Position numbers and translations under genes: made by a program. This document shows positions 7,938 to 53,923 of a stretch of DNA of 64,000 nt, piece after piece. The stretch comes from Candidatus Aenigmatarchaeota archaeon (lineage in GTDB: Archaea; Aenigmatarchaeota; Aenigmatarchaeia; GW2011-AR5), in NCBI GenBank assembly GCA_016187335.1, contig JACPJW010000001.1, forward strand, positions 671,159 through 735,158, given 5' to 3'. The notes beneath the pieces were generated by a model that did not search any database, had not been told where the DNA came from, and saw only the letters and a program-made list of their open reading frames with translations. The first letter of the stretch is position 1, and each line of letters opens with the position of its first letter.

Positions 7938-8780
7938 TTACGGGAAAAATAAGGCAACAAATTGCTTAGCGTAAAGCACTGTAATTATGATGAATAACCC
8001 AGCCAGCATGAGAACGATTGCGGATATTTTTAGTATCTTATGGCTCGACTCGCGCAGGAAATTTATCTTAGCGGTGCCGACAAGAAGAGAAACCGTCAGC
8101 ATCAAAATTCCCATTGTCAGCGAATAAATAACAAAAGCCAAAAGCGCAGCATTAAACCCGCTAGCCAACGCAAGGACAATCAATCCAGCAAGAATAGGGC
8201 CGGTGCAGCCTATATTTCCCAAGTTATAACCGAACCCGTAGAAGAAATAATTCTCTGAGCTCTTTTTTCCCGAAACAAATTTATGACTTATGCTTTTGAA
8301 CAGTTGCCCCTGTACTGAAATATGAAAGAATTGCAGTACGCCAAGGATGAACAAAATTCCGCCTACTATTGCCCTTATTGTCAGAGTAATACCCGAAAGC
8401 TGGCCGCTTTCTGCAACCGAAAAGGCAGACCCAATTCCCAGGCCAATGAAGGCAAGAATAACGCCCAGAATTATGTTGAATGAGACTAATCCTGCCGATG
8501 CCAAAACCCCGTTTCTAAAAATAGCACCCTTGTGTAAGTTCTTGCCCTTCCCGTATAGTGAGAGGTATGCTGGCAGCAAACCGAAAGAGCATGGGGAAAA
8601 GAATGTTGCCAGGCCTGCAAATACTGCAACAATCATCAGAGGCAGCACGCCCAAAGTAGCCATATTTTTTGCGAATTCAAGAAAGCCAAAATACCCTGCA
8701 ACCGTGATTGCTATCAATACTGCGAGGAATACTACATATAAGCCAGCTTGTCCCTTGGCATCTGAACCCATAAAAATCAC
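7938..8780 (-). CDS. ccdA: CcdA/DsbD-family transmembrane thiol-disulfide electron transporter
   Basis: FFSPCSFGLLPAYL and GNIGCTGPILAGL are the two conserved Cys-containing TM motifs of the DsbD_2/CcdA family. Confidence 0.75.
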   Translation of the reverse strand: MIFMGSDAKGQAGLYVVFLAVLIAITVAGYFGFLEFAKNMATLGVLPLMIVAVFAGLATFFSPCSFGLLPAYLSLYGKGKNLHKGAIFRNGVLASAGLVSFNIILGVILAFIGLGIGSAFSVAESGQLSGITLTIRAIVGGILFILGVLQFFHISVQGQLFKSISHKFVSGKKSSENYFFYGFGYNLGNIGCTGPILAGLIVLALASGFNAALLAFVIYSLTMGILMLTVSLLVGTAKINFLRESSHKILKISAIVLMLAGLFIIITVLYAKQFVALFFP

Positions 8781-26330: not shown

Positions 26331-27320
26331 CTAGGAAGCGAACGTGGTAAATGCTTCCTTGCTGTCTATTATTCTGGGCATCTTGAAATTATTCTCATGA
26401 TTAATATTTTCTAATATTTTTTTTGTTTCTGAATTATTCATAGTTCTTCTGTTATTAGTAACAATATAATCAAGCCGATTTACGACAGCAGCTGCAATTA
26501 TTTCGCAGTCTTCAATAGTGATTTTTATTTTTGCATTTATACATGCCTTGAAATAAGATTCTGCAAGAATTTTGACATTTTGATTTATCTCCAAGGCATT
26601 GTTTATGGCAGAATTGTAAAGCTTCAAAGTTTCCATCCTTGTAGGTTTGTGGGGGTTCTTTTCAAGCTCTTTCTTAATTGTACCAAATCCTAAAATTAAC
26701 AGACGCCCATCATTTTTTTCATTTATAAGTTTTGATACCAAATCCCCGACAGATTTGTCTTCTACCGCCCATCCATAAATATTAGTATCAAAAAGAATTT
26801 TTGTTGGTATAATTTCAGAAAACCACAGTTTTATTTCCGTTTCGGCTTCCTCTTTGTTGCCCGATGCGTGTATCAGATTGTACACAGGCCTTCTTTCCTT
26901 GTTCGCCTGCAGGATGTTGTCATTGCCTAAATCGCCGCGTATCGTGCCCTTTTCAGCTGCCGAAGGATCCGTGTAGCCCGTGATTTCCCTTGCCTTCTTT
27001 ATTGCGTTCTCGCCTTCCAGAATCATGGCAACAACGGGCCCTGAAGTCATGTATTTGCGCATGCCCGTTACGATAAACATGCCGTAGCCGTGGGGGTCCT
27101 TGCTTGCGAAAGGATCCCCGGCTTTCTTTCCTTTTTCAGCCAGCGAGAGCAGGTATTCTTCTTTTTCCGGGTAATGTTTTTTTATCAGCGATTCAGAAAC
27201 GCCCAGCATCTTCATTGCGGCAATGCGCAGCCCGCCTTTTTCATACCTGCTGATTATTTCGCCTATAAGATTCCTTTCAACGCCGTCCGGCTTTATCACG
27301 ATGAGGGTTTGCTCTTTCAT
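26331..27320 (-). CDS. ndk: Nucleoside diphosphate kinase fused to a C-terminal PIN domain
   Basis: N-terminal half has TLIVIKPDGV...NLIHASG (NDK). C-terminal half has ILFDTNIY...EDCEIIAAAVV...YIVTNN (PIN acidic residues). The C-terminal half is visibly more AT-rich. Confidence 0.7.
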   Translation of the reverse strand: MKEQTLIVIKPDGVERNLIGEIISRYEKGGLRIAAMKMLGVSESLIKKHYPEKEEYLLSLAEKGKKAGDPFASKDPHGYGMFIVTGMRKYMTSGPVVAMILEGENAIKKAREITGYTDPSAAEKGTIRGDLGNDNILQANKERRPVYNLIHASGNKEEAETEIKLWFSEIIPTKILFDTNIYGWAVEDKSVGDLVSKLINEKNDGRLLILGFGTIKKELEKNPHKPTRMETLKLYNSAINNALEINQNVKILAESYFKACINAKIKITIEDCEIIAAAVVNRLDYIVTNNRRTMNNSETKKILENINHENNFKMPRIIDSKEAFTTFAS

Positions 27321-33151: not shown

Positions 33152-33940
33152 TCATCTCGCCCCTGCGGCTTCCCTTTCTATTCTTTCCTTCTCGCGCAGC
33201 GCCGTTGAATCCTGCGAGCCGTGATACGCCGCAAGAATTTCTTCGGCCAACGCCTGCTCAATTCCGCGCTTGCTGTGGAAGGATTTCCTGTAGGTTCCCT
33301 GCGCGAAATACCGCAGCGTCTTGTCAACGCGCCTCTGCGGCGCCGTGATAACCGATTCCCTTGCCATTATGCTTCCCAGCTGGTAAGAAATTATTTCCTC
33401 GCGGACCGCCGCGTTTTCTATGGCGCGGACGAGAACTTCCACGGGATTCTTGTTTTCCTTTTTCTCGATGATTTCCAGGGCCTTTTCCACGGCTTTCAGG
33501 CAGTTCATGAGCCCGCCGGCCAGAGGGCCCGAAGTCAGGCGGTGCCTTTTTCCGGTGTGCCCCGGGACCATCATGTGCAGGGCAAGCCTTTCAGCAACGT
33601 GCATCTTTGATTTGTGGAATCTTCCGCGATGGATTCCGGCGCTTCTTGGAAGCAGTCTGGGCTCAAGGTTTATGTAAGGCCTCAGGCTCAGGTCATTTAC
33701 AATAACGTTGCTGTCCCATCTTCCGAAGAGCTTCAAGTCGAATTTTGTCTTTTCCCTTTTCTTTATCTCCACGCGCCTTGGTCTTCTGTCAAAACTTTTT
33801 CTGAATTCTCTGCGTTCGCCGAACTTGCGGCCTGACTGCCTTTCAACGGCCGCGCCTCTCTGGTCTTTTCCTCTCATTCCTTCATTTCTGCCGCGCATGT
33901 TTTCATTTCTCATGATATCACATTTTTTAAAAAACATCAA
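33152..33940 (-). CDS. rps7: 30S ribosomal protein S7 with an Arg/Gly/Lys-rich N-terminal extension
   Basis: The S7 core starts at LKLFGRWD. It is preceded by about 55-70 aa (MRGRNEGMRGKDQRG...RRPRRVEIKKREK). Several candidate Met starts. Confidence 0.85.
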   Translation of the reverse strand: MMFFKKCDIMRNENMRGRNEGMRGKDQRGAAVERQSGRKFGERREFRKSFDRRPRRVEIKKREKTKFDLKLFGRWDSNVIVNDLSLRPYINLEPRLLPRSAGIHRGRFHKSKMHVAERLALHMMVPGHTGKRHRLTSGPLAGGLMNCLKAVEKALEIIEKKENKNPVEVLVRAIENAAVREEIISYQLGSIMARESVITAPQRRVDKTLRYFAQGTYRKSFHSKRGIEQALAEEILAAYHGSQDSTALREKERIEREAAGAR

Positions 33941-34493: not shown

Positions 34494-35270
34494 ATGAAAT
34501 CACCAGAACCACAGGAAGTATCATTAAGGGAACAGTTAGGGAAAGTGGGACTCGATAGCGCGGCCAGAGACGGGGCGTTTCAACTAGTTAAAATATATGA
34601 ATCTTCTCCTCCTGTCCCTGTAATTTCAATTCAGACGACAAGGGTTTTTGGAGACATAGAGCCTTATACTTCTAGCTCTAGGCATTTAGTTTTTCCTTAT
34701 GGGAATGCTGTCCTAAAAAGCGAAGATGAAAATTGGAAATGCATAAGACAGCAAACTAAAACGCGACCCGAAACTTTAAACGAGTTTCACTTCGCTATTG
34801 GATATTCCAATAGGGGATTGCCTGTTGTCAGGCCAATATGCGTAATTCATGCTGTTGAAGAGGACGACTTTTTGCTTGTCGAACCGAAAGGATTTGATTT
34901 GAGGCTTGGGATGGAATATAATTTGTTGTCTAATTTGCCCGCGACCGAAGAAGAAGCCCGGGAAACACTAAGAGCCTTGGGCAGATTTTTTGTTGCCTTG
35001 AAACGGGCTGATAGAGCTTACCAGCCGAATGTTCTTTATTATGAACGATTCCCTTTCGAACATTTGATTCGTTTTGGTGAAAACGGAAGTTATCAGGTAC
35101 TTGTTACGGATAATCCTGCGTTTGTTCAGGAAGATATTGATGCGCCCGGAGGATATTTATCTGATGTTATAGCGCTATTTGAAGGGTACAAGAATAAAGA
35201 AGTATCGGAATTTGCTCTGCGGGCGCTAAGAGAGGGTCTTGAGCCGGAAATAATTATCACTTCACCCTGA
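34494..35270 (+). CDS. Orphan protein on the opposite strand between rps12 and nusA
   Basis: 258-aa ORF with lower GC than its neighbours; no family recognised. Confidence 0.4.
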   Translation: MKSPEPQEVSLREQLGKVGLDSAARDGAFQLVKIYESSPPVPVISIQTTRVFGDIEPYTSSSRHLVFPYGNAVLKSEDENWKCIRQQTKTRPETLNEFHFAIGYSNRGLPVVRPICVIHAVEEDDFLLVEPKGFDLRLGMEYNLLSNLPATEEEARETLRALGRFFVALKRADRAYQPNVLYYERFPFEHLIRFGENGSYQVLVTDNPAFVQEDIDAPGGYLSDVIALFEGYKNKEVSEFALRALREGLEPEIIITSP

Positions 35271-36014: not shown

Positions 36015-36075
36015 CTTTATTGAATGCTTAATATTTTTCTTTCCGCAGGCGCTTTCTTTTCCAAAAAGAAAGGGC

Positions 36076-38553
36076 CTATTTTTTCTTCTTCATCTTTGAC
36101 AAATCCATCGTGAGCTCGACCATGCCCGTGCCGATGGGTGCCAGCTGCCCTACCAGCACGTTCTCGATTATCCCGTCCATGGTGTCCTTCTCGCCGTAGA
36201 ACGACGCGTTTATCAGGTGCCTTTTTGTTTCCTCAAAGTTCGCCCGCGCCAGGACGGACGCCTTTTTGCCGGATACGCCGTATCGCCCGATGTCCCTGAC
36301 CTCCCCGGTGAATGTCATGATGTCAGCAAGAAGCATCAGATGCCTTACATCAACCTCAAGGCCCTGCTCGTCTAAGGTTTCCTTGGCTTCCTGCAAAATA
36401 ACATTTCTCGTGGCTTCTATGCCGAGTATCTCGAAAATCTGGTGCACGTCGTTCGTCCTTGTCCTTTTTGCGTCAACTTCGTTTATCTGCAGGACCTTTT
36501 TCAGGTTAGTCCCTGCGGTCTGTATGACCCAGTCGTCGCCCTCGCGCACCACGACGACATTCTCTATCCCCTTGATGCCGTCAATGTGCATCTTCAGGAC
36601 CTTGTTTTTTATTTTTCTGAGGTTCTTGACGTCGCTTTCCTTCGGCTTTATGTAGACATTCCCGCCCCTGAAGGAAATGGCCGCCTCTTTGACGTATTTG
36701 GAGACCATTGATTTGAGCTGCTCTTTGTGCTTTTCGCCCTCAAGCTCCAGCTCAATCTGCATGTCAATAAGGTCTATGGAATCGGAAAGTATCACATCTT
36801 GCACTTTTACGGATTTCATCCTGTTCGCAATTTCCTTTGCCTTTTCCTTGCTGTTGTATTCTTCTTTCAGGTAAATGATCATGTTCTTCTCAAAAGTCTT
36901 GCGGGCGTCAAAAATCTCTATGAGCCTCGGCAGGCCCTGCGTGACCTTGCTCAGCCTGTCTGACTGCGAAGCCAGCGTATAGGAACGCATTGTGTTGTGT
37001 GTAATAATGCCTTCAAATGTCGTGAATGTTTCCGTGCCTTCAACCGTCAGATCGTAGACATATCCAGAAGAAGGCAAAACTTCTGTTATTTCAGTTATCT
37101 CATCCCAAACGACATCAGATGCATGCATCTTTCTGAGTATCGAAAGCTCTTCAGTCACATCAATGTGATTTTTCTTTGCAATCTCGTTGAATAATACAAT
37201 ATATCTAAGTAGGGCTTCTTTTCCAATTTTCTGCCTTTTTGTGAAGCTGTTTACATACCTGCTTGGATAACTCAGTTTCTTCGCAAGCTTTGGAAGCAGA
37301 TCGTCGAAGCCGCCTACAAGCTCGACAAAATCTTGCTTGATGGGTTTGCTAGCACACAGTACTCCAAGATTCTCGGCCTTTTTGGCGGAACTAAACCCGA
37401 TTTTTTGCCGGAATACAGATGCGTATTTTGCGGGTATTGTTAGTGTATATTGCTTGCCTCTTCCTTTGTAAGAGAATATGCCAAATCTCGCTAAGAGTAG
37501 TGAGATGCCGTCTATAAGCTCTTTTGAATTTGAAGAAGCCCTTATTACGCCTCTCTCGACAGATACATTCCCATCGCCGTCGAAATAAGCCTGCAAAAGC
37601 GCCGATACGAATTTCTCATCAGCACTGTACGCAAAATCAGGGACTCTCTTGTTCCTTGATCCACTACCGCATGTTTTTGCAAGTAGGGCGGAAAGAATAG
37701 CGGAATTTACATGAATATCATGGCCGTTTGCAAATCCTCTTGTGTTGTCATATTCATTATAGGTCAGGCCGAATGAAGAGGCAAATTGTCTTATTCTCCC
37801 GAGGAAAATTTCATTTGTGCTTGATATGCATACAAAATTCGGAGTGCAGTTTCCTTCGGAGAGATAAGCGCCGAAAATATATCCCGTAACCTCATTCAGC
37901 GGAAAGATTTCCGGCAAAGGCTTTTTGGCACGTGAAAAATGGGTTTCTGCAATCGATTTTAGGTTAATAGAATCTATGCAGTTTTCAGGAAGCAGCTTGA
38001 TTACCGGTATTCTCTCGCCTTTTCTCAGGTCTTTTCCGGAAACAGCAACTATCTTGTTATGCTTTCTTATAACAAATGAATGAGAATCTGTGGCTATTAT
38101 CTCGCGCCCTGACAGTGTTCTTATTCTCAGCAGCCTTTCCGGTGATTTGTGTCTGCTGCATGCAAGAACCTTTTTCCATTCGATTTTCTCCCCCTGATTT
38201 ATGCTGGGAACGTATATTTCCATGCCCGAAAGATCGCATATATCCCAGCCATTCTCGTTCATAGAACCCAGATTTTCTATTGATTCATCGGTAAAGCGGC
38301 TAATTTCAGAAATGGCAACCCGGTCTTTATGCTTGATAATTATTTTTTCCTTGGCGTCAATGCTCATCTGCGTCGCCGGTTCGCTGATTGATTGCGCTGC
38401 AACGACGCCTATTGCCTCGCCGGGTTCGTAAAGGTATTTCACGATAAGATGATTTAATTTTTCCAGCAGTTCTTCTTTTTTCTTCCCTTCAATCCCGTGC
38501 TTCCTGCAGTATTCCTCGAATTTCAGCAACACTTCCTTTGAAAGATAAGCCAT
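36076..38553 (-). CDS. rpoA2: DNA-directed RNA polymerase subunit A'' interrupted by an intein
   Basis: The exteins give AAQSISEPATQM | TMRSYTLAS... plus the conserved C-terminal A'' sequence. 825 aa compared with about 370-390 aa expected. Confidence 0.9.
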   Translation of the reverse strand: MAYLSKEVLLKFEEYCRKHGIEGKKKEELLEKLNHLIVKYLYEPGEAIGVVAAQSISEPATQMSIDAKEKIIIKHKDRVAISEISRFTDESIENLGSMNENGWDICDLSGMEIYVPSINQGEKIEWKKVLACSRHKSPERLLRIRTLSGREIIATDSHSFVIRKHNKIVAVSGKDLRKGERIPVIKLLPENCIDSINLKSIAETHFSRAKKPLPEIFPLNEVTGYIFGAYLSEGNCTPNFVCISSTNEIFLGRIRQFASSFGLTYNEYDNTRGFANGHDIHVNSAILSALLAKTCGSGSRNKRVPDFAYSADEKFVSALLQAYFDGDGNVSVERGVIRASSNSKELIDGISLLLARFGIFSYKGRGKQYTLTIPAKYASVFRQKIGFSSAKKAENLGVLCASKPIKQDFVELVGGFDDLLPKLAKKLSYPSRYVNSFTKRQKIGKEALLRYIVLFNEIAKKNHIDVTEELSILRKMHASDVVWDEITEITEVLPSSGYVYDLTVEGTETFTTFEGIITHNTMRSYTLASQSDRLSKVTQGLPRLIEIFDARKTFEKNMIIYLKEEYNSKEKAKEIANRMKSVKVQDVILSDSIDLIDMQIELELEGEKHKEQLKSMVSKYVKEAAISFRGGNVYIKPKESDVKNLRKIKNKVLKMHIDGIKGIENVVVVREGDDWVIQTAGTNLKKVLQINEVDAKRTRTNDVHQIFEILGIEATRNVILQEAKETLDEQGLEVDVRHLMLLADIMTFTGEVRDIGRYGVSGKKASVLARANFEETKRHLINASFYGEKDTMDGIIENVLVGQLAPIGTGMVELTMDLSKMKKKK
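36994..38364 (-). mobile_element. Intein (457 aa) with a LAGLIDADG homing-endonuclease domain inside RpoA''
   Basis: Ser1 (SIDAKEK), block B TDSH, LAGLIDADG motifs GYIFGAYLSEGN and LLQAYFDGDGNV, C-terminal VYDLTVE...GIITHN followed by Thr+1. Confidence 0.8.
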
Positions 38554-38598: not shown

Positions 38599-41079
38599 TT
38601 ATTTCACGCCGTGGAAAAGCTTTTCAATGTCAACCTTGCCCGCGTCGCTTTTGGCGGGGTCAACCATGTCCTCGCCCGCGACAAACTGTATGATAAAGTT
38701 CTTGCTGTCGCGCACGGTGCCGTCGTATTCCACTCTCAGGTCCTGCAGCGCGTTGACCAGGCGGCGCTCCATGTACCCGGAGTGCCTTGTGTGCAGCGAC
38801 TTGTCCATCAGGTTCTCCCTGCTGTTCATGGCGTCAAAGAAAAACTCCACGGGGTCAAGACCTTTCTTATAGCCGCTCGAAACGAAGCCGTGGGATTTCG
38901 CGCCAAGGTCGCCTCTTTCAAACAGCGACAATGTCCTTCCCACGAAGCCCCTGTGTATCCTCTCGCCTTCCAGGGCCTCCTGCCCGACAAACGCGCACAT
39001 CTGCGTAAGGTTGACAAAGGAGCCTCTCGCGCCTGTTATAGCCATTATGACCGCTGTCGTCAGAGGCAGGTCTTTCTTGACGGTTTCTGACGCGCTGTTT
39101 GACGCGAGGCCGCCTAATTGCAGTATTTTGTTTTCCAGGGTCATCTCCGGCGTCAGTCCCCCTGTCTTTTCAAGGCGGCCTGCTTTGTAGTCCCTGACCA
39201 GCCTCGAAATGCTTTCGTTGTACTCATCAATTACTTTTTCAATATTGTTTTTCGCGCGCGTTGAAATGTCTATGTCGCCGACGGATATGCTGAATCCTTT
39301 CCTTGTGATGACTTCCAGGGCGAGCTTGGAAACCCTGTCGATGAATTCCCTCGCTGCGGAGTGGCCGTATATCCTTTCTATTATGTCGATGAGCTTTGCT
39401 TTTTTCTCTCCCAGCGCGTCGTCATCAATGACGCCCCTGAGAAGCCGCCCGTTCTTTATCACGACAGCTTCACCTGTGGACGACTTGAATTCAATGCTCA
39501 GGTCTTTCGGCAATAAGTAAGAAAAAATCTCCTTTCCCGTGTAGGTATCCTTGACCTCAGGGAGCTCCATCCCTATAGACATCAGCAGCTCCGCGGCTTC
39601 TTTTCGGCTGAGCTTTGTCTCGTCCCTTGTAAGCAGATAAGAGCCGGTTATGTGGTCGTGCTTGCACGCAACTATGGGCAGCCCGTATCGCGGCGAGCGG
39701 ATGTGGTTTTCCACGGCCATCAGCATCTCCGCTTCCGTCTGCGCTTCCTCTGTCTGCGGAACGTGCAGGTTCATTTCGTCGCCGTCAAAGTCCGCGTTGT
39801 ATGGTATCGTCACCGCGAGGTTCAGCCTGAAAGTCCTGTAAGGCATGATGCGCGCGCGGTGGCCCATCATGCTCATGCGATGCAGCGACGGCTGCCTGTT
39901 CATGACCGTTATGTCGTTGTCCTGCAGATGGCGCTCCACGACGTAGCCGGTATCAATCTCTTCCGCTACGTCTTTTTTGTTTTCCTCTGTTATTTTTTTT
40001 CTTATCCCGTCCGGCCTCACGACATAATTCGCGCCCGGATGCACGCCCGGCCCGTTAAGTATGTATTTCTTGACGGCATCAAGGCTGTTTTTCGTCACCT
40101 TCACGGGAACGGTAAGCTCTTTCGCGATTTCCATGGGTATTCCCACTTCGCTTATTGAAATATTGGGGTCCGGCGTGACAACGGTTCTCGCGGAAAAATT
40201 AACACGCTTTCCGGAAAGGTTTCCGCGGAACCTCCCCTCTTTTTTGCTCAGCCTCTGCATCAGCGTTTTCAGCGCCCTGCCTGACCTGTGGCGCGCCGGC
40301 GGCAGCGTTGAAATCTCGTTGCTCATGAACGTTGAGATGTGGTATTGCAGTAATTCCCAGATGTCGGCGATGATAAAATCAGGCGCGCCGATTTCCAGAT
40401 TTTTCTTCAGTCTTTCGTTTATCCTTACGACGTCAACCAGCTTGTGCGTCAAGTCATCTTCCGAGCGTTCGCCTGTTTCCAGGGTGATTGAAGGGCGCAC
40501 GGTCACGGGAGGCACGGGCAGTATGGTAAGGACAAACCATTCAGGCCTTCCGCCTTTCACCCTGAGCAGCTGTAAATCTTCATCAGTGATTTTTTCCAGC
40601 CGCTGCCTTATTTCCTCGGGATTCATCTCTGTGCTGCCTTCGTTGAATGTGGTCGGCTTCTGGAACGTCAGCTCCCTTTGCTTTTCGCCGCAGTGTATGC
40701 ACATCTTCGGCTTCTTCTTGTACAGTTCGTTGAGCGGGTTGCCCATCTTCTTCAGGTCTTCCAGCTTCGCCAGCGGACGCGAGCATTTCCTGCATATCGA
40801 GCGCAGCACCATAAAAATCTTTTTTCCGTACAGCGGGTGTATTGCCGGCTTCGTCAACTCAAGGTAGCCGAAATGCCCCAGGCATTGCCCTATGGAGCCG
40901 CCGCACGTCCTGCACCGCAGGCCGGGGTCGACAACGCCGAGGTGCAGGTCAGTCAGCCCGCCGTCTATCGGGTAGCCGTCAGGATCGTAAAGCTCCGCGT
41001 GCTCAATCTTCACCGCCGACATTTCCTTAATCATGCGCGGCGACAGGAATCCGAACTCGATTGCTTTTACTTTTGCCAT
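38599..41079 (-). CDS. rpoA1: DNA-directed RNA polymerase subunit A'
   Basis: Zinc motif CRTCGG...CLGHFG; catalytic YNADFDGDEMN. Confidence 0.95.
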   Translation of the reverse strand: MAKVKAIEFGFLSPRMIKEMSAVKIEHAELYDPDGYPIDGGLTDLHLGVVDPGLRCRTCGGSIGQCLGHFGYLELTKPAIHPLYGKKIFMVLRSICRKCSRPLAKLEDLKKMGNPLNELYKKKPKMCIHCGEKQRELTFQKPTTFNEGSTEMNPEEIRQRLEKITDEDLQLLRVKGGRPEWFVLTILPVPPVTVRPSITLETGERSEDDLTHKLVDVVRINERLKKNLEIGAPDFIIADIWELLQYHISTFMSNEISTLPPARHRSGRALKTLMQRLSKKEGRFRGNLSGKRVNFSARTVVTPDPNISISEVGIPMEIAKELTVPVKVTKNSLDAVKKYILNGPGVHPGANYVVRPDGIRKKITEENKKDVAEEIDTGYVVERHLQDNDITVMNRQPSLHRMSMMGHRARIMPYRTFRLNLAVTIPYNADFDGDEMNLHVPQTEEAQTEAEMLMAVENHIRSPRYGLPIVACKHDHITGSYLLTRDETKLSRKEAAELLMSIGMELPEVKDTYTGKEIFSYLLPKDLSIEFKSSTGEAVVIKNGRLLRGVIDDDALGEKKAKLIDIIERIYGHSAAREFIDRVSKLALEVITRKGFSISVGDIDISTRAKNNIEKVIDEYNESISRLVRDYKAGRLEKTGGLTPEMTLENKILQLGGLASNSASETVKKDLPLTTAVIMAITGARGSFVNLTQMCAFVGQEALEGERIHRGFVGRTLSLFERGDLGAKSHGFVSSGYKKGLDPVEFFFDAMNSRENLMDKSLHTRHSGYMERRLVNALQDLRVEYDGTVRDSKNFIIQFVAGEDMVDPAKSDAGKVDIEKLFHGVK

Positions 41080-41406: not shown

Positions 41407-44400
41407 TTATTCCTCCGCGATTATCTTCGGGTATATTCCCAGGGACTTCAGCTCGTCCAGCATCAGTTTGAACGCGTAGCTGATGTCAATGTCAATGATT
41501 TTTGATTTCTTGCATACGCCGCAGTATTTTTTGCCCTTGACGCGGTCTTCCACGGCGATCAGGCCGCAGCGCTCGCATACGGGCACGCTGTATTTGTCGC
41601 TGCTGAAGCGCTCTTTGAGCAGGAGGGCGCTGCCATGAGCGATTAAGCAGTCCTTTTCCATTTCCCCCAGGCGCAAGCCGCCCTGCTTCGCCCTTCCGGC
41701 AGTAGGCTGCTTGGTCAGCAGCGTTACAGGCCCGCGGGCTCTGGACTGTATCTTGTTCGCAACCATATGATGCAGCTTCTGGTAATAGCACGGCCCTACA
41801 AGTATGCGCGCCTCGAGCACGCGCCCTGTCACGCCGTCGTACATTATTTCCTTGCCGTCGTCGCGGAACCCGAGCTTTTCCAGTGTCTGTCTCAGGCTTT
41901 CTTCCGTGACGTCGTTGAAGGCGGAGCCGTCCACGGGCATGCCTGATAATGCCGAGACTTTCGAGGCGATGATTTCAAGCATCTGGCCTATTGTCATCCT
42001 GCTCGGTATCGCGTGCGGGTTGACTATTATGTCAGGCGTGATGCCGCCCGTTGTGAATGGCATGTTTTCTTCAGGCACGATCAGGGATATGACTCCTTTC
42101 TGGCCGTGGCGCGACGCGAACTTGTCGCCAAGTTCCGGCACCCTTTCGCTTCTGACGTTCACTTTCACTAGTTTGTTTCCTGCCGACGTTTCCGAGAGGA
42201 ATACGCCGTCAACAATGCCGTCCTCGCCGTGCCTTATCGTTTCCGATGTTTCCCTGCGGTTCTCTGTCTCGGCCATAAAGCTTTCCACGGGCCCGATGAA
42301 GCGGAGCGGCGACACCTTGCCGACAAGAACATCTCCGGAAATGACAGAAATTTCCCTGTTCACTATCCCGTCCTTGTCGAGGTTTGCGTAAGCTTCCTCG
42401 GTGCGGTAGCCGTTGACGGCCTTGTCCGGTATTTTTATCTCGTCCTTTTCAATGCCCCAGTATTTCTTTTCTTCCGTTGAGTACGCCCTGAAGAAGAACG
42501 AGCGGCCGAAGCCCCTGTCGAGCGAAGCCTTGTTGAATACCAGGCCGTCCTCCATGTTGTACCCCTTGTAGCTCATGATGGCAAGGACGATGTTCTGGCC
42601 CTGCGGGTGCTCTTCCAGTCCGATTTCTTTGCCGACGACCGTGTTCACCAAAGGCATCTGCGTGTAAACAAGGACGTCCGCCTTCGTTTCTGTTCTTATT
42701 GAAAAGTTTGTCGTGTAAATGCCCAGCGCCTGGCCGGACATCTTCGCGCCGAAGTTGACGCGGTCCCCCCTGTTCCTCGTAGGGAACGGGACAAGCGATG
42801 CCGACAAGCCTAAAATCACGCCCGGGTGCACTTCCAGGTGCGTGTGGTCTTTTGACAGGTTATCCGCAGTCAGCGCAACAAGCATGCTGTCTTCTTCCTG
42901 GGCGTCTAGATATTCCACGATGCCTTCCTTCAGCAGCTCGCCCCACGCCATCTCGCCATTTACCAGCTTTTCCAGGTGCTTTTCAGTCAGCCTTGCTTTC
43001 CCGTTTTCAACAATAATCATCGGCCTTTGCAGCCTTCCTGAATCCGTGTTCACGAAAACCTCCTGGAAATCCTCCTCAACGGCAACATTGATGTAGCGGC
43101 TTATCGCGCCGTTTCTTCTCTTCTGCTTTATTTTTTCTGCGAATTCCCTGGGCTTGTCCGTCGTGCCTATGATATTCCCGTTAAGGAAAATAGTGTACCC
43201 GCCGCTCTCCTTTGACGCCGTTTGCGCGATGAGCTCGTTGTCCTTTCGCGGCGCTGTATCGGAGATGACGGCAAAGGTGGCTAAATACTTGCGGAGGCCT
43301 ATGTTGACGCCTTCGGGAGTTTCCTCGGCGCACAGCCTTCCCCAGTGCGTTGCGTGCAATGCCCTCGCTTCAAAGTGCTCCTGTGAGGACGACAAAGGCG
43401 ATATGACGTTTCTCAGGTGGGCTATTGTTCTCACGTAATTTGTCCTTTCCAGCCGCTGGCAGACGCCCGTCCTGCCGCCGATCCACTGGCCCGTCGCCAT
43501 GTGCGAAATAATCCTTTTTGTCAGGTAATCCGACTCCACTATGGATTTTATTGAAGGCAGCTTTCCGCGCTTCACCAGTTTCTGGTAAGAATAAACTATC
43601 CTTGAAACCAGGCCGTACTTGCCGAGGAGGATTGAGCGGAAAAGTATTTCCATGAAATCCCCGACGAGGCGCAGGCGCTTGTTTGAATAATGGTCAATGT
43701 CCTGCTCCTTCGCTTTTTTCAGGCCCAGGCGCAAAAGCTTTCGGACAACCTTGCAGAGGTAAACTGCCTTTTCTTTTCTTGCCTTCTTGTCCTGGCCGAT
43801 GTGGGGAAGCAGGTATTTGTCCAGGATGTCGTTCACGCGCTTGTCGCGGTATTCCTGCTGAGGTATCTTCAGCTTCTTCCCTAAATGGTCCTTCGCTTCC
43901 TCGACGCTCTTGACGTCGTATTCATACAGGTTGAAGTAAATTTCCTGGACCTCGTCCTTTTCACCGGTTATGGCCTCGATTATCTCTTTGTCCGTCTCCA
44001 TTCCCAGAGCGCGAAGGAGCACTACTACAGGCAGTTTTTTCAGGTTGGCAAAGGAAATTGTTATGATGCCCCCTTTCCTTTCCAGGAGATGCCTCTGGAC
44101 GAAGCCGGACGACTCGCTGTTGATGCGGGCGGTTTCGTTCTCCCCCTTTGTCTCGATGACGGGCCTGTTCGACAGGACTTCTTCCACCATCACGATTACG
44201 CGCTCGGTTCCGTTGATAATGAAATAGCCGCCCGGGTCGTTAGGGTCTTCGCCCTCTTCAGCCAGCTGCTCTTCGGTGAGCCCTTCAAGCCAGCACAGCT
44301 TTGATTTCAGCATTATGGGCAGATCCCCGAGTTTTACTTCCTGCGGCTCCTGCTCAACGCCGTTTATTATAGGTATTATTTCAACATGTATCGGCGCGGA

Positions 44401-44676
44401 ATAAGTAAGGTCCCTGATGCGCGCCTCCAGCGGCGTTATCCTCCTTACGGCGCCGTCCGCTTCCTTCAGGACAGGCTTGGGTATTTTCACCTTCCCGAGC
44501 TTTATCTTGAATTCCGCAAGCTCCGGCGTTTCCAGCTCGATTTCCCCTATCTCGTCAATTATCTTCTGTATCCTGAAGTCGATGAACTCGTTGAAAGACT
44601 CGACCTGATGGTTGACAAAGCCCACTGATTTTTTGTAAGAAGAAAGCAGCGTTCCGTACGTTTTCATCTTGTCCAT
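41407..44676 (-). CDS. rpoB: DNA-directed RNA polymerase subunit B (unsplit)
   Basis: 1089 aa; GDKFASRHGQKG, C-terminal zinc ribbon CERCG...CGVC. Confidence 0.95.
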   Translation of the reverse strand: MDKMKTYGTLLSSYKKSVGFVNHQVESFNEFIDFRIQKIIDEIGEIELETPELAEFKIKLGKVKIPKPVLKEADGAVRRITPLEARIRDLTYSAPIHVEIIPIINGVEQEPQEVKLGDLPIMLKSKLCWLEGLTEEQLAEEGEDPNDPGGYFIINGTERVIVMVEEVLSNRPVIETKGENETARINSESSGFVQRHLLERKGGIITISFANLKKLPVVVLLRALGMETDKEIIEAITGEKDEVQEIYFNLYEYDVKSVEEAKDHLGKKLKIPQQEYRDKRVNDILDKYLLPHIGQDKKARKEKAVYLCKVVRKLLRLGLKKAKEQDIDHYSNKRLRLVGDFMEILFRSILLGKYGLVSRIVYSYQKLVKRGKLPSIKSIVESDYLTKRIISHMATGQWIGGRTGVCQRLERTNYVRTIAHLRNVISPLSSSQEHFEARALHATHWGRLCAEETPEGVNIGLRKYLATFAVISDTAPRKDNELIAQTASKESGGYTIFLNGNIIGTTDKPREFAEKIKQKRRNGAISRYINVAVEEDFQEVFVNTDSGRLQRPMIIVENGKARLTEKHLEKLVNGEMAWGELLKEGIVEYLDAQEEDSMLVALTADNLSKDHTHLEVHPGVILGLSASLVPFPTRNRGDRVNFGAKMSGQALGIYTTNFSIRTETKADVLVYTQMPLVNTVVGKEIGLEEHPQGQNIVLAIMSYKGYNMEDGLVFNKASLDRGFGRSFFFRAYSTEEKKYWGIEKDEIKIPDKAVNGYRTEEAYANLDKDGIVNREISVISGDVLVGKVSPLRFIGPVESFMAETENRRETSETIRHGEDGIVDGVFLSETSAGNKLVKVNVRSERVPELGDKFASRHGQKGVISLIVPEENMPFTTGGITPDIIVNPHAIPSRMTIGQMLEIIASKVSALSGMPVDGSAFNDVTEESLRQTLEKLGFRDDGKEIMYDGVTGRVLEARILVGPCYYQKLHHMVANKIQSRARGPVTLLTKQPTAGRAKQGGLRLGEMEKDCLIAHGSALLLKERFSSDKYSVPVCERCGLIAVEDRVKGKKYCGVCKKSKIIDIDISYAFKLMLDELKSLGIYPKIIAEE

Positions 44677-44718: not shown

Positions 44719-44979
44719 TCAAATGACAACCCTGTAGTAAAAATATTCTAATGCGACCGGGGATTTCCTGGTTATGCGCAGCACGTCGCCTTTTTTGGCG
44801 CCAAGCAGCTTCACTACCGGGTCTTCCTCGCGTATTTTCGGCAGCTGCCCCGAAGAAACATTCAGCCTTTCCAGCAGCTCCGCTTTCTCCTCGCCGCTCA
44901 TGATTTCGTGCTTAGGCACTAGGTCGCTCTGGAATATGTCTATCTTCTCTTCCTGCACTGCCTTTTCTTTTTCTGCCAC
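44719..44979 (-). CDS. rpoH: DNA-directed RNA polymerase subunit H
   Basis: LVPKHEIMSGEEKAELLERL...LPKI...DPV is the RpoH/Rpb5 C-terminal signature. GTG start with AGGTGA upstream. Confidence 0.85.
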   Translation of the reverse strand: MAEKEKAVQEEKIDIFQSDLVPKHEIMSGEEKAELLERLNVSSGQLPKIREEDPVVKLLGAKKGDVLRITRKSPVALEYFYYRVVI

Positions 44980-45158
44980 AAAATCACCTAAGAGGAGAAG
45001 AAACCTACGGTTTCCCTGCGGAGAACTTGAAAAGTTCTCCGAGGTCTCGAAAAGCTTTCGCTTTTCGCAGATCTCCCTCTACCCTCATTTCCCTTATTAT
45101 TTTTAAGACCTCTGAGAAGGTCTTCCGTTTTGGTGAAACTTTTCTGAAAAGTTTCTAG
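44980..45158 (-). promoter_or_regulatory. Structured hairpin-rich spacer between tRNA-Lys and rpoH (putative leader of the RNAP operon)
   Basis: Four perfect 7-9 bp hairpins at 45020-45040, 45048-45067, 45105-45124 and 45135-45155. Shares exact 10-12-mers (AGGAGAAGAAAC, CCTCATTTCC on the plus strand) with the tRNA-Lys anticodon-loop intron. Confidence 0.45.
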
Positions 45159-45500
45159 TGGGCCCGACGGGAAATTCGAAGCACGTTGCCACGACATGCT
45201 TATTCGAACCCGCGACAGGCGGCTATCTTTCAAGGAGAAGAAACGGAACAGCTTGAAGCACTTCGTGCTTCGGTTTCCTTCCTCTCCTTTGAACCTCATT
45301 TCCTCATATTACCGAACGAATTCGGCTTCGGATCTTTTATCTTTTTGATCAAACTTTTTTCCAAAAAGTTTGCATGATAAAAGGCCGCTACTCTACCAGG
45401 TTTCTCGCAACCCCAGTCTTCCTGTAATATCTTCGCATGTTCTTTGGGACATGCAAAGACCTTTCTTACAAGAAAGGGATTTGCACTGAGCTACAGGCCC
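45159..45500 (-). tRNA. tRNA-Lys(TTT) with three introns (342-nt gene)
   Basis: Exons 45500-45485, 45398-45378, 45224-45202 and 45171-45159 join to a 73-nt cloverleaf. Acceptor GGGCCTG/CGGGCCC, D stem GCTC/GAGT, anticodon stem GCGGC/GCCGC, loop CTTTTAA, T arm GCGGG-TTCGAAT-CCCGT, A73. Introns are about 86 nt (D loop), 153 nt (37/38) and 30 nt (T loop). Confidence 0.75.
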
Positions 45501-45501
45501 G

Positions 45502-45721
45502 CGCCTTGGCCGGGATATTCGGAACTTTCCCTTTTCCTCGAAGAACGTTAGTTCTTCGGGATCTTGGAGAACTTTCGTTCTCCACAGATGATTGAACTTT
45601 TTGGAAAAGTTCATTCGAACCCGGGTCGTAGCCGTTCTATGATTTTTCCGTTGACGCTTTTGCTCGCCAGCGGAAAAGGGTCATGACAGGGCTACATGCT
45701 AGACCGCTACACCACCAAGGC
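45502..45721 (-). tRNA. tRNA-Asp(GTC) with two introns
   Basis: Exons 45721-45684, 45634-45613 and 45514-45502 join to 73 nt. Acceptor GCCTTGG/CCAAGGC, TGGTGTAG D region, anticodon stem TAGCC/GGCTA, loop CTGTCAC, T arm CCGGG-TTCGAAT-CCCGG, G73. Introns are 49 nt (37/38) and 98 nt (T loop). Confidence 0.8.
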
Positions 45722-45722
45722 A

Positions 45723-45992
45723 TTATCTCCACATTAGGTAGCTTTTCATGTCATCCGTTGGTACAGTAACAACAAAATCACAAGGCTTGCCAGCTATTCG
45801 CATCACATCGCCCTGCGCATCATTAATCCTTCCCAGGGTTTTTTCGTCAAGCTCATCCACAATAGCGTATACAATCAAATGTCCGTCCGATTCCTGCACC
45901 GAAGCATGCATGACCGTGTAAACATCTTTTAAGGCATCCCTGAAGGTATCGAAAATCCTTTCTGTTGGAACGTCTTGGATATTCACAGGCAT
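45723..45992 (-). CDS. Hypothetical 89-aa protein
   Basis: AGGTGA lies 8 nt upstream of the ATG. The stop codon ends 1 nt before the tRNA-Asp 5' end. Confidence 0.4.
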   Translation of the reverse strand: MPVNIQDVPTERIFDTFRDALKDVYTVMHASVQESDGHLIVYAIVDELDEKTLGRINDAQGDVMRIAGKPCDFVVTVPTDDMKSYLMWR

Positions 45993-46328
45993 ATGAGTTC
46001 ACCTAAAGACTATCAGAAAGTCTCTCCTCTAAGTTTTGAAAACCGTTGTAGAGAAATAAGTCTTATAACCATTCAAACCCTGCCGCGCGCCATCAATGAC
46101 AAATATAAGGTCAGCAACGTCCTGGCGTTCACAGCTTTCGCCATTACTTGCCATATCGCTGGAGAGCTTAACTTCCAGGTTCGGAATGGATCTGGGTGTG
46201 CCCTCTCCGCCTTGGTCGCCAACCACATTACTATTCAAGGATAAAGGATTTAAAGACTTTAAAAACCGTCAGGACGAAACAGGATTTTTCTGGGTAAAAG
46301 CCGAAACCCGCCTTCCGTTTTTCTTCAA

Positions 46329-46338
46329 TTTTAAATAT
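46329..46338 (+). promoter_or_regulatory. TATA-box-like element upstream of tRNA-Tyr
   Basis: TTTTAAATAT lies 33-42 nt upstream of the mature 5' end, similar spacing to the element upstream of tRNA-Thr. Confidence 0.35.
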
Positions 46339-46370
46339 GTCCTTCGGCGTATTCTCTATTGCAATTTAAT

Positions 46371-46561
46371 CCCGCGATAGCTCAACGGTAGAGCGCCCGG
46401 CTGTAGCTTAGCACTGCAGAACAAAGCTGTGTTATGATTCAGCAGCCGCTCACTAGAAACCGGGAGGTTGCCGGTTCGAAAGACCCTTTTCTTTTGGAAA
46501 GAAAAGCGTCTACGGAAAAGAAAATATTAAGGAAAGGGGTCCGAAACTCCGGCTCGCGGGA
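46371..46561 (+). tRNA. tRNA-Tyr(GTA) with two introns
   Basis: Exons 46371-46406, 46459-46480 and 46548-46561. C1-G72 pair (archaeal Tyr identity), D stem GCTC/GAGC, anticodon stem CCCGG/CCGGG, loop CTGTAGA, T arm GCCGG-TTCGAAT-CCGGC, A73. Introns are 52 nt (37/38) and 67 nt (T loop). Followed by a T-run. Confidence 0.8.
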
Positions 46562-52039: not shown

Positions 52040-52062
52040 GCAACTTTTTAGAAAAAAGTTGC
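52040..52062. repeat. Member of the hairpin family
   Basis: GCAACTTTTTAGAAAAAAGTTGC, with a degenerate copy ATCAGACTTTTCAGAAAA at 52070-52088. Confidence 0.5.
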
Positions 52063-52179: not shown

Positions 52180-52382
52180 GCCACGCTAGCTCAGTAAGCC
52201 CTTTTCTTGGAAAGAAAAGCGCTTGCGGAAAAAGAACATATTAGGAAAAGGGCTGGAGAATGGTAGAGCGTTAGTGAAATGACACCGCTAAACCTTGGTA
52301 AGGAACTTTTCAAAAAAGTTCCATCAAAACGGAAAAACCAACAAAGAGGTAAAGGCCCCGAGTTCGATCCTCGGGCGTGGCT
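52180..52382 (+). tRNA. tRNA-Thr(GGT) with three introns
   Basis: Exons 52180-52195, 52261-52273, 52293-52300 and 52347-52382 join to 73 nt. Acceptor GCCACGC/GCGTGGC, D stem GCTC/GAGC, anticodon stem TTACC/GGTAA (forms only after removing a 19-nt insert), loop TTGGTAA, T arm CCGAG-TTCGATC-CTCGG, U73. Introns are 65 nt (D loop), 19 nt (about 29/30) and 46 nt (37/38). Confidence 0.7.
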
Positions 52383-52387
52383 TTTTA

Positions 52388-52512
52388 TACAAGGAGAATA
52401 CCACTGTTTTCAAACAGTGGTATTATAATGGTATTCTCCTGTATAACATAATCCACAAATAACATATGTGGTATTTCTCCGAAATACCACCGACTTTAGT
52501 CGGTGGATTATG
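52388..52512. repeat. Cluster of nested, partly mutually exclusive perfect inverted repeats sharing a GGTAT/ATACC core
   Basis: Pairs: 52392-52403/52429-52440 (12 bp), 52398-52409/52412-52423 (12 bp), 52447-52456/52503-52512 (10 bp), 52468-52477/52481-52490 (10 bp), 52487-52495/52498-52506 (9 bp). Confidence 0.6.
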
Positions 52513-53880: not shown

Positions 53881-53923
53881 TTGATCAAACTTTCTTTTGA
53901 TCAAACTTTTCAGAAAAGTTTGA
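53881..53923. repeat. Tandem TTGATCAAACTTT units ending in a perfect hairpin of the family
   Basis: TTGATCAAACTTTCTTTTGATCAAACTTTTCAGAAAAGTTTGA. Confidence 0.55.

Follow-up and report, generated by a model that had tools for sequence, protein, structure and literature searches.

Two tandem tRNA genes with five predicted bulge-helix-bulge introns upstream of the RNA polymerase operon of an Aenigmatarchaeota genome

Introduction

The described tRNA genes closest to those considered here belong to Thermoproteales (Thermofilum, Pyrobaculum, and Caldivirga). Two papers (PMC4033280, PMC4090602) describe up to three introns per tRNA in this order, bounded by bulge-helix-bulge (BHB) or relaxed-BHB motifs and located at position 37/38 and at noncanonical positions that include 59/60, 20/21, 22/23, and 29/30. 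They also report that similar introns recur across tRNAs and across positions, a pattern interpreted as intron transposition (Sugahara 2008; Fujishima 2010). Here we analyze adjacent tRNA-Asp and tRNA-Lys genes with two and three candidate introns, respectively, in a 64,000-nt stretch of Candidatus Aenigmatarchaeota archaeon DNA (assembly GCA_016187335.1, contig JACPJW010000001.1, positions 671,159 to 735,158; hereafter, the window). As in Thermoproteales, the tRNA genes of the window have up to three introns, at 37/38 and at noncanonical sites, and introns of different tRNAs resemble each other. Unlike the hyperthermophilic crenarchaea, the lineage is a DPANN phylum with a moderate G+C content (approximately 46%); the dominant noncanonical sites are here 15/16 to 16/17 and 59/60, and members of the intron families also occur free in intergenic DNA and in the 5S rRNA gene of a relative. 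Thermoproteales have an (alpha-beta)2 endonuclease with the crenarchaeal loop.

Disrupted tRNA genes are also found in ARMAN-1 and ARMAN-2 (with an epsilon2 EndA), in Nanoarchaeum equitans, and in Woesearchaeota and Pacearchaeota (with an alpha4 EndA bearing an L3 loop) (Fujishima 2011, PMC3239211; Kaneta 2018, PMC5829648), and standard predictors miss the full tRNA set in such DPANN genomes (Kaneta 2018, PMC5829648). An earlier note on this DNA, made from the sequence alone, had cited Thermoproteales and some ultrasmall archaea as known carriers of multi-intron tRNAs, in agreement with reviews and papers (PMC4033280, PMC4090602, PMC5829648). The genome studied here shares with other DPANN genomes its small size, many noncanonical or multiple tRNA introns, and the failure of standard predictors. 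It differs in that Aenigmatarchaeota were not among the genomes analyzed in those studies (PMC3239211, PMC5829648) and in that none of the four tRNA genes of the window is split or permuted, the exons of each being colinear, on one strand, and within a span of 191 to 342 nt. The BHB introns and processing stems of archaeal 16S and 23S rRNA present the same substrate motif to the endonuclease. To our knowledge, archaeal rRNA BHB introns concern 16S and 23S rRNA, whereas the case described below lies in a 5S rRNA gene, in the genome of a relative. Full-text literature searches returned no report of multi-intron tRNA genes for Aenigmatarchaeota. Up to three introns per tRNA, noncanonical sites, and intron transposition are thus already known from Thermoproteales; what is added here is a series of orthologous genes with zero to three introns, intron families shared with intergenic DNA and 5S rRNA, and the failure of standard tRNA finders.

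Results

Interrupted tRNA-Asp and tRNA-Lys genes

ARAGORN found no tRNA in the raw 64-kb window, and its intron options found none in the raw region. At the Rfam gathering threshold, the raw window gave a single match, the 5S rRNA, and no tRNA. When two segments were removed from tRNA-Asp and three from tRNA-Lys, ARAGORN called Asp(gtc) of 73 nt and Lys(ttt) of 74 nt, both perfect cloverleaves with all stems paired, so the claim of the earlier note that cloverleaves appear only after such removal held. Both genes are on the minus strand; all coordinates of the locus are window positions, and the exons are those of the spliced ARAGORN calls.

45721..45502, minus strand: tRNA-Asp(GTC), 220 nt genomic, 73 nt mature
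45721..45684 (1-37), 45634..45614 (38-59), 45515..45502 (60-73), minus strand: tRNA-Asp exons
45501, minus strand: single C between Asp G73 (45502) and Lys G1 (45500)
45500..45159, minus strand: tRNA-Lys(UUU), 342 nt genomic, 74 nt mature, with A73 at 45159
45500..45486, 45400..45378, 45224..45203, 45172..45159, minus strand: tRNA-Lys exons

The discriminator of tRNA-Asp is G73, an identity-type feature. The mature tRNA-Asp is 93% identical, and the mature tRNA-Lys 97% identical, to intron-less orthologues at one related locus (L023; related loci carry L numbers throughout), which score 56 and 71 bits, respectively, against the Rfam tRNA family.

Each junction pair was scored for an outer helix (h), a 4-bp central helix (H), two 3-nt bulges with cleavage after the second bulge base, and an inner helix (h′). 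Each intron was then shuffled 20,000 times, and the shuffles that reached the observed H and h′ at the fixed junctions were counted.

45683..45635, minus strand: Asp intron 1, 49 nt, position 37/38; h 7, H CUGU/AUAG 4/4, h′ 2 followed by a 7-bp helix; shuffles 0.4%
45613..45516, minus strand: Asp intron 2, 98 nt, T loop, position 59/60; h 5, H UUCG/CGAA 4/4, h′ 10; shuffles 0/20,000
45485..45401, minus strand: Lys intron 1, 85 nt, D loop, position 15/16; h 0, H GCUC/GAGA 3/4, h′ 4+4; shuffles 0.3%
45377..45225, minus strand: Lys intron 2, 153 nt, position 37/38; h 5, H CUUU/AAAG 4/4, h′ 2; shuffles 0.7%
45202..45173, minus strand: Lys intron 3, 30 nt, T loop, position 59/60; h 5, H UUCG/CGAA 4/4, h′ 8; shuffles 0/20,000

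The motif was strict at four of the five junction pairs, with a fully paired central helix and an outer helix of 5 to 7 bp, and the shuffle test was significant at all five (P ≤ 0.007). The outer helix is the T stem for the 59/60 introns and the anticodon stem for the 37/38 introns. Both T-loop introns have the strict hBHBh′ form (bulges AAU and UAU in Asp intron 2), and the bulges of Lys intron 2 are UAU and AUA. Lys intron 1 has the relaxed HBh′ form, with H drawn from the 5′ strand of the D stem and h′ composed of GCAA/UUGC and UCCC/GGGG. A BHB or relaxed BHB can therefore be folded at each of the five proposed junction pairs, which was the check that the earlier note had proposed for its reading.

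The unconstrained folds of the two precursors had z-scores of −7.6 (Asp) and −6.4 (Lys), and the minimum free energy (MFE) structures recovered the acceptor stems and both T-loop BHBs. Enforcing all BHBs together cost 3.0 kcal/mol in Asp and 10.9 kcal/mol in Lys, where three BHBs are involved.

The 342-nt length of the Lys gene, its 153-nt intron at 37/38, and its D-loop and T-loop introns were as first described, as were all the other coordinates and lengths, with one exception. The mature length of 73 nt and the D-loop intron of 86 nt need correction: orthologues with an uninterrupted D loop (L023, L002, and others) read AGCCUGGUA, which gives an intron of 85 nt at 15/16 and a mature tRNA-Lys of 74 nt. 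The same orthologues led us to reject the 86-nt alternative, which would give AGUGGGUA, and a cut after U16, which would give an 11-nt loop. A strict GCAA/UUGC central helix (cut at 45479/45404) was also rejected because it leaves a D loop of 20 nt.

Orthologous loci

RpoB of the window was 64–80% identical to that of Candidatus Aenigmatarchaeota metagenome-assembled genomes and <50% identical to that of other archaea, which places the organism in this DPANN phylum. An independent public contig (Logan SRR12113430, present in seven samples) was 100% identical to window positions 46510..45593 (918 nt), a span that covers the 3′ part of a tRNA-Tyr gene (described below), the 5S rRNA gene, an open reading frame (ORF), and the 5′ part of tRNA-Asp, so the interruptions did not arise during assembly. 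Orthologues were sought by exon matches and by spliced alignment of the mature sequences to the 2 kb upstream of rpoB in related loci.

The order 5S-Asp-Lys-rpoH-rpoB was kept in approximately 25 Aenigmatarchaeota genomes. In these loci, the number of introns per gene varied from zero to three. Both genes of L023 lack introns and pass the Rfam tRNA model, and tRNA-Asp is also intron-less in L015 and L017. Three introns were found in tRNA-Asp of L018 and L016 and in tRNA-Lys of L005; a four-intron tRNA-Asp suggested for L016 was an artefact of the spliced aligner, as inspection gave three. The recurrent intron sites were 15/16, 20/21 to 22/23, 37/38, and 59/60, with a BHB or HBh′ at the junctions. 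In L013 and L034, the orthologous tRNA-Lys intron at 15/16 is built like Lys intron 1 of the window. The Lys 59/60 intron is 30 nt long in L001 and L053, and 30 and 32 nt in L005 and L015. In L001 and L053, which are the closest relatives, the Lys 37/38 intron shares only its ends with that of the window.

The cleanly aligned spliced orthologues were all called Asp(gtc) or Lys(ttt), except for tRNA-Asp of L018 (72 nt, isotype unassigned). Across the spliced orthologues, 99.5% and 99.6% of the cloverleaf cells were paired, with two-sided changes at five pairs per tRNA; in a control in which the 3′ partners were slid by one to three columns, 25–51% were paired. Judging from these alignments, the exons evolve in the manner of functional tRNAs, with a turnover of their introns; as far as the data reach, this answers the earlier note's condition that degraded loci would refute its reading. 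Exon conservation, compensatory stem changes, zero to three introns per gene, and an intron-less relative together argue that the Asp and Lys genes are functional. The core of the initial reading, two multi-intron archaeal tRNA genes, is sustained by the BHBs at all five junction pairs and by orthologues that keep exons and cloverleaf and vary in their introns. The intron density stressed in the earlier note is typical of the clade, given the zero to three introns of the relatives and the two and three of the other tRNA genes of the window (described below), and it equals, without exceeding, the published maximum of three per gene.

On the minus strand, the gene order from 5′ to 3′ is 5S rRNA, an 89-amino-acid (aa) ORF, tRNA-Asp, tRNA-Lys, a 179-nt spacer, rpoH, rpoB, rpoA′, and rpoA″.

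46223..46109, minus strand: 5S rRNA (Rfam RF00001, 62.5 bits), uninterrupted in the window
45992..45723, minus strand: 89-aa ORF; stop codon TAA at 45725-45723, then a single T (45722) before Asp G1 (45721)
45158..44980, minus strand: hairpin-rich Lys-rpoH spacer, 179 nt (fold z = −3.9), opening with a module B hairpin (AGAAACTTTTCAGAAAAGTTTCACCAAAACGGAAGACC; module B is described below)
44979..44719, minus strand: rpoH, first gene of the RNA polymerase operon (Pfam Rpb5_C, E = 3.6e-28)
44676..41407, minus strand: rpoB, 3′ of rpoH
41079..38599, minus strand: rpoA′ (Pfam Rpb1 domains)
38553..36076, minus strand: rpoA″ (Pfam Rpb1 domains)

As had been noticed at the outset, the 89-aa ORF ends 1 nt before tRNA-Asp, a single C separates the two tRNA genes, and CCA is encoded after neither; all three can be read off the sequence. 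The 1-nt spacing of Asp and Lys was identical in 11 orthologous loci, and the length of the Lys-rpoH spacer differed widely among relatives. Outside the phylum, Asp and/or Lys exon matches were found upstream of rpoB in Woesearchaeota/Nanoarchaeota loci, and a match to the 5′ end of tRNA-Lys was found there in Thermoplasmatota loci. Because the same order runs through the phylum and the linkage to the region upstream of rpoB extends beyond it, the association with rpoH, initially considered striking, is an old conserved synteny rather than a peculiarity of this locus.

The 89-aa ORF is preceded by an AGGTGA Shine-Dalgarno-like motif, and relatives have a noncoding gap of 140–180 nt at the same place. 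It had no Pfam match and no tblastn match among 80 related loci, and among 5.8 billion protein clusters it matched only itself. The ORF is an orphan and possibly no real gene; it could be spurious or stem from an insertion specific to the lineage.

Interrupted tRNA-Tyr and tRNA-Thr genes

Two further interrupted tRNA genes were found in the window by a partial Rfam match and by BLAST with exons of tRNAs from relatives. After splicing, ARAGORN called them Tyr(gta) and Thr(ggt).

46371..46561, plus strand: tRNA-Tyr(GUA), divergent from 5S rRNA, with the C1-G72 pair of archaeal tRNA-Tyr
46407..46458, plus strand: Tyr intron 1, 52 nt, position 37/38; weak BHB (H 3/4, h′ 1, shuffle P = 0.07)
46481..46547, plus strand: Tyr intron 2, 67 nt, position 59/60; strict BHB (h 5, H 4, h′ 12)
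52180..52382, plus strand: tRNA-Thr(GGU), with three introns
52196..52260, plus strand: Thr intron 1, 65 nt, position 16/17; HBh′ with a 12-bp h′
52273..52291, plus strand: Thr intron 2, a 19-nt mini-intron at position 28/29 that splits the anticodon stem; H AGCG/CGCU 4/4
52301..52346, plus strand: Thr intron 3, 46 nt, position 37/38; weak BHB (P = 0.31)

The window therefore has 10 introns in four tRNA genes, all four of which are interrupted, and ARAGORN and Rfam (gathering threshold) detected none of the four in the raw window. By the strict score, two of the 10 BHBs were weak (Tyr 37/38 and Thr 37/38). Enforcing the three BHBs of tRNA-Thr at once cost 18.5 kcal/mol. Since the 28/29 intron splits the anticodon stem, it is probably removed before the 37/38 BHB can form. 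The tRNA-Thr gene of L002 has a D-loop intron and a 15-nt intron at 28/29 with a compensating inner helix, and no 37/38 intron.

Two GGTTCGA motifs were rejected as signs of hidden tRNA genes: the region at 34879 resembles coding sequence of the opposite strand, and the motif at 24052 lies inside an ORF for an aIF2/IF-2-type GTPase. A TTTAAATA box lies approximately 35 nt upstream of tRNA-Tyr. Just 3′ of tRNA-Thr, two strong hairpins share a AATACCAC arm (52387-52434 and 52483-52506, plus strand).

Shared intron modules

The introns have a mosaic makeup of short modules. Module A has the form CCCUUUUC-hairpin-GAAAAGCG-YNNR-CGGAAAA, and in several window copies it is followed by a AUAUUAAG-like box and then by approximately 20 nt to the 3′ splice site. 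In the window, it is found in Asp intron 1 (37/38; GACCCTTTTC...AAAAGCGTCAACGGAAAA), Tyr intron 2 (59/60), Thr intron 1 (16/17), and after the stop codon of rpoA″; in relatives, copies occupy introns at positions 20/21, 37/38, and 59/60 as well as the DNA immediately 3′ of tRNA-Lys (L009 and L013). Copies were counted by regular expression and compared with shuffled sequences. Aenigmatarchaeota DNA totaling 602 kb contained 18 copies of the AAGCG-N4-CGGAA core, compared with 0–2 copies in shuffles and one in 737 kb of DNA from other archaea. The upstream CCCTTT hairpin was also present in approximately 15 of the 18 copies. The outer bases of the YNNR tetrad were always complementary (C-G or U-A).

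In module B, AUCAAAA follows a hairpin (AACUUUU..AAAAGUU). Its palindrome, AACTTTT-N(3-5)-AAAAGTT, occurs six times in the window, compared with 0.03 expected, and most copies are followed by ATCAAAA. Five of the six lie in or next to tRNA genes, and the sixth lies between two protein genes.

45137-45153, 45352-45370, 45595-45611, 52042-52060, 52304-52320, 53904-53920: module B palindromes

In pairwise tests against shuffles, Tyr intron 2 (59/60) resembled Thr intron 1 (16/17) (approximately 85% over 54 nt, z = 19). Other resemblances within the window were those of Thr intron 3 (37/38) to the Lys-rpoH spacer (z = 15), of Asp intron 1 (37/38) to Tyr intron 2 (59/60) (z = 12), and of Asp intron 2 (59/60) to Thr intron 3 (37/38) (z = 12). 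Similar introns in different tRNA species and positions are the pattern from which transposing introns of the Thermoproteales type are recognized. A full homology of the Lys-rpoH spacer to Lys intron 2 was considered and dropped, as only the hairpin module aligns (z = 4).

In the closest relative, L001, the 5S rRNA gene (8552-8742) has a 74-nt insertion (8596-8669), which is absent from the near-identical 5S rRNA gene of L053. The BHB of the insertion is perfect (UUCG aa^a ... CGAA aa^c). The core of this insertion is approximately 84% identical to Lys intron 1 (15/16) of the window over 57 nt (z = 23), and its target, UUCGAA^, is the same sequence as the 59/60 site of tRNAs. The exact phrase "5S rRNA intron" was not found in the full-text literature searched. 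The 5S rRNA genes of L013 (1170-1320, 151 nt) and L024 (8928-9072, 145 nt) have approximately 30–35 nt of extra sequence in the helix IV/V region, which may be an intron or an expansion.

The free copy of module A directly after the rpoA″ stop codon (36037-36077, minus strand) is followed by a AAATATTAAG (TATA-like) box and an ATG, and it is approximately 82% identical to Tyr intron 2 over 51 nt (z = 16). TATA-like AAATATTAAGG and ACATATTAGG occur in Tyr intron 2 and Thr intron 1, respectively (46519-46529 and 52233-52243, plus strand), approximately 20 nt before the 3′ splice site. A distance of approximately 20 nt is the spacing expected from an archaeal TATA box to the transcription start.

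Discussion

The locus is very probably composed of two functional tandem tRNA genes that carry two (Asp) and three (Lys) protein-spliced BHB introns, the introns being members of rapidly evolving families that spread in this lineage from position to position and from one RNA gene to another. The genes would share the transcription of the conserved 5S-Asp-Lys-rpoH cluster; since the sequence directly upstream of tRNA-Asp shows no TATA-like box, cotranscription with the upstream ORF or with 5S rRNA is likely. As sequence and folding show, the 3′ end of each intron pairs in the precursor with the four exon nucleotides just upstream of the 5′ splice site, which gives the 4-bp helix flanked by two 3-nt bulges. 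By analogy with established archaeal tRNA splicing, EndA would cut both bulges and an RtcB-type ligase would join the exons. RNase P and tRNase Z would presumably resolve the 1-nt junction between Asp and Lys, and CCA would then be added.

Because D-loop (HBh′) and T-loop sites are used, the endonuclease must accept relaxed motifs outside the anticodon arm, and an endonuclease type of broad specificity may accordingly be expected in the lineage. Relaxed or non-anticodon cleavage has been described for the (alpha-beta)2, the epsilon2, and the loop-bearing DPANN alpha4 EndA (PMC5829648).

Several points weigh against this interpretation. The MFE structure departs from the Lys 37/38 BHB in favor of an alternative inner pairing, and the inner helix of this BHB has only 2 bp before an internal loop. 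The Lys D-loop BHB has one mismatch in H and no outer helix. The spliced alignments of orthologues were seeded with the mature tRNAs of the window, which favors similar exon calls, although pairing was not enforced. We infer splicing from sequence and folding. The evidence covers the window, and intron-less second copies of Asp and Lys may exist elsewhere in the genome. Finally, no EndA or RtcB gene was found in the window, and a Pfam scan of 60 of its ORFs (most of the long ORFs and all of those of EndA-like size) gave no tRNA_int_endo domain. A tblastn search with Methanocaldococcus jannaschii EndA (query checked against PDB 1a79) found no match in the window or in the DNA of related loci. 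Database searches with a single EndA sequence and with a DPANN-enriched EndA profile gave no match traceable to the genome or the phylum; the results of the profile search were dominated by two-domain Methanosarcinales enzymes.

A first alternative, which is compatible with the interpretation above, accepts the splicing as proposed and holds that modules A and B are themselves functional, possibly as stable circular RNAs, as a protein-binding or processing signal, or as promoter or terminator elements at the DNA level. We consider it improbable, but the best placed of the alternatives. It would account for the enrichment of the module A core in Aenigmatarchaeota DNA, for the retention of the module A sequence across genomes whose introns cannot otherwise be aligned, for the invariably complementary outer bases of the YNNR tetrad, and for copies directly after gene ends (the rpoA″ stop codon in the window and tRNA-Lys in L009 and L013). 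However, the modules match no Rfam family, inspection by eye revealed no C/D-box or other guide-RNA signature in them, and the TATA-like box is missing from the copies in L016, L028, and L034. Their conservation could also reflect the recent spread of a selfish element.

Alternatively, the window could hold dead tRNA genes broken by short hairpin-rich (MITE-like) repeats, with functional intron-less copies elsewhere. Consistent with this, the repeat families of the inserts also occur outside RNA genes, namely 3′ of the rpoA″ stop codon and of tRNA-Lys, 5′ of tRNA-Thr, and at 53904-53920. Such decay is nonetheless very unlikely, as an exact cloverleaf is restored at every insertion by the BHB or HBh′ in which it lies. 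The exons are 88–97% identical to their orthologues, with compensatory stem changes, whereas the inserts have diverged beyond recognition. Moreover, the syntenic Asp/Lys locus is present in approximately 25 relatives, which include intron-less and single-intron versions that pass Rfam, and the decay of four different isoacceptors, that is, of all four tRNAs of the window, is implausible in a small genome (contig of approximately 0.9 Mb). Self-splicing (group I/II) or other non-BHB introns, or an assembly chimera, are effectively refuted: although archaeal group I introns are on record (PMC6125680), introns of 30–153 nt are far below the size of a group I/II core, no Rfam intron family matched the window at gathering or permissive (E ≤ 10) thresholds, and every junction has BHB geometry, while a chimera is countered by the identical independent assembly of the region from the 3′ part of Tyr to the 5′ part of Asp and by the architecture shared with relatives.

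If the two genes are read, as we prefer, as functional and BHB-spliced, the origin of their introns can be considered. A tentative proposal, which we regard as possible rather than probable, is that the introns are currently or recently mobile families of BHB elements that move among tRNA positions, tRNA species, 5S rRNA, and intergenic DNA, with insertion guided by pairing of the 3′ end of the element to a 4-nt target, for example, of CGAA with the UUCG of the T loop. If this proposal were true, then the clade would be a natural system for working out how BHB introns are gained, the candidates being a process at the DNA level and reverse splicing by means of EndA and ligase, and its endonuclease might be a new variant of broad specificity.

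With regard to annotation, the tRNA sets of Aenigmatarchaeota, and probably those of other DPANN genomes, are badly under-called, and metabolic or "missing tRNA" inferences for such genomes need BHB-aware prediction. With this locus, a mesophile-like DPANN phylum joins the few lineages with up to three introns per tRNA, and its orthologues form a dense natural series of zero to three introns for the study of gain and loss. The shared families, including the homologue in the 5S rRNA gene of a relative, bear on how protein-spliced introns spread, and the locus predicts a splicing endonuclease of broad specificity in Aenigmatarchaeota.

Other features of the window

The 825-aa length of the rpoA″ product (36076-38553, minus strand) is due to an intein, in which a LAGLIDADG homing-endonuclease domain is present (Pfam Intein_splicing and LAGLIDADG_3). 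The ORF for nucleoside diphosphate kinase (26331-27320, minus strand) encodes 329 aa, approximately twice the usual length, and has two separate Pfam matches. Ribosomal protein S7 (33152-33940, minus strand; 262 aa) has an N-terminal extension of approximately 100 residues that gave no match. The length of the latter two ORFs could possibly be explained by insertions, inteins, or wrong start codons. A 258-aa ORF (34494-35270, plus strand) lies on the opposite strand in the 820-nt gap between a NusA-like KH gene and rpsL (S12), within an rpo/ribosomal-protein cluster that is otherwise codirectional.

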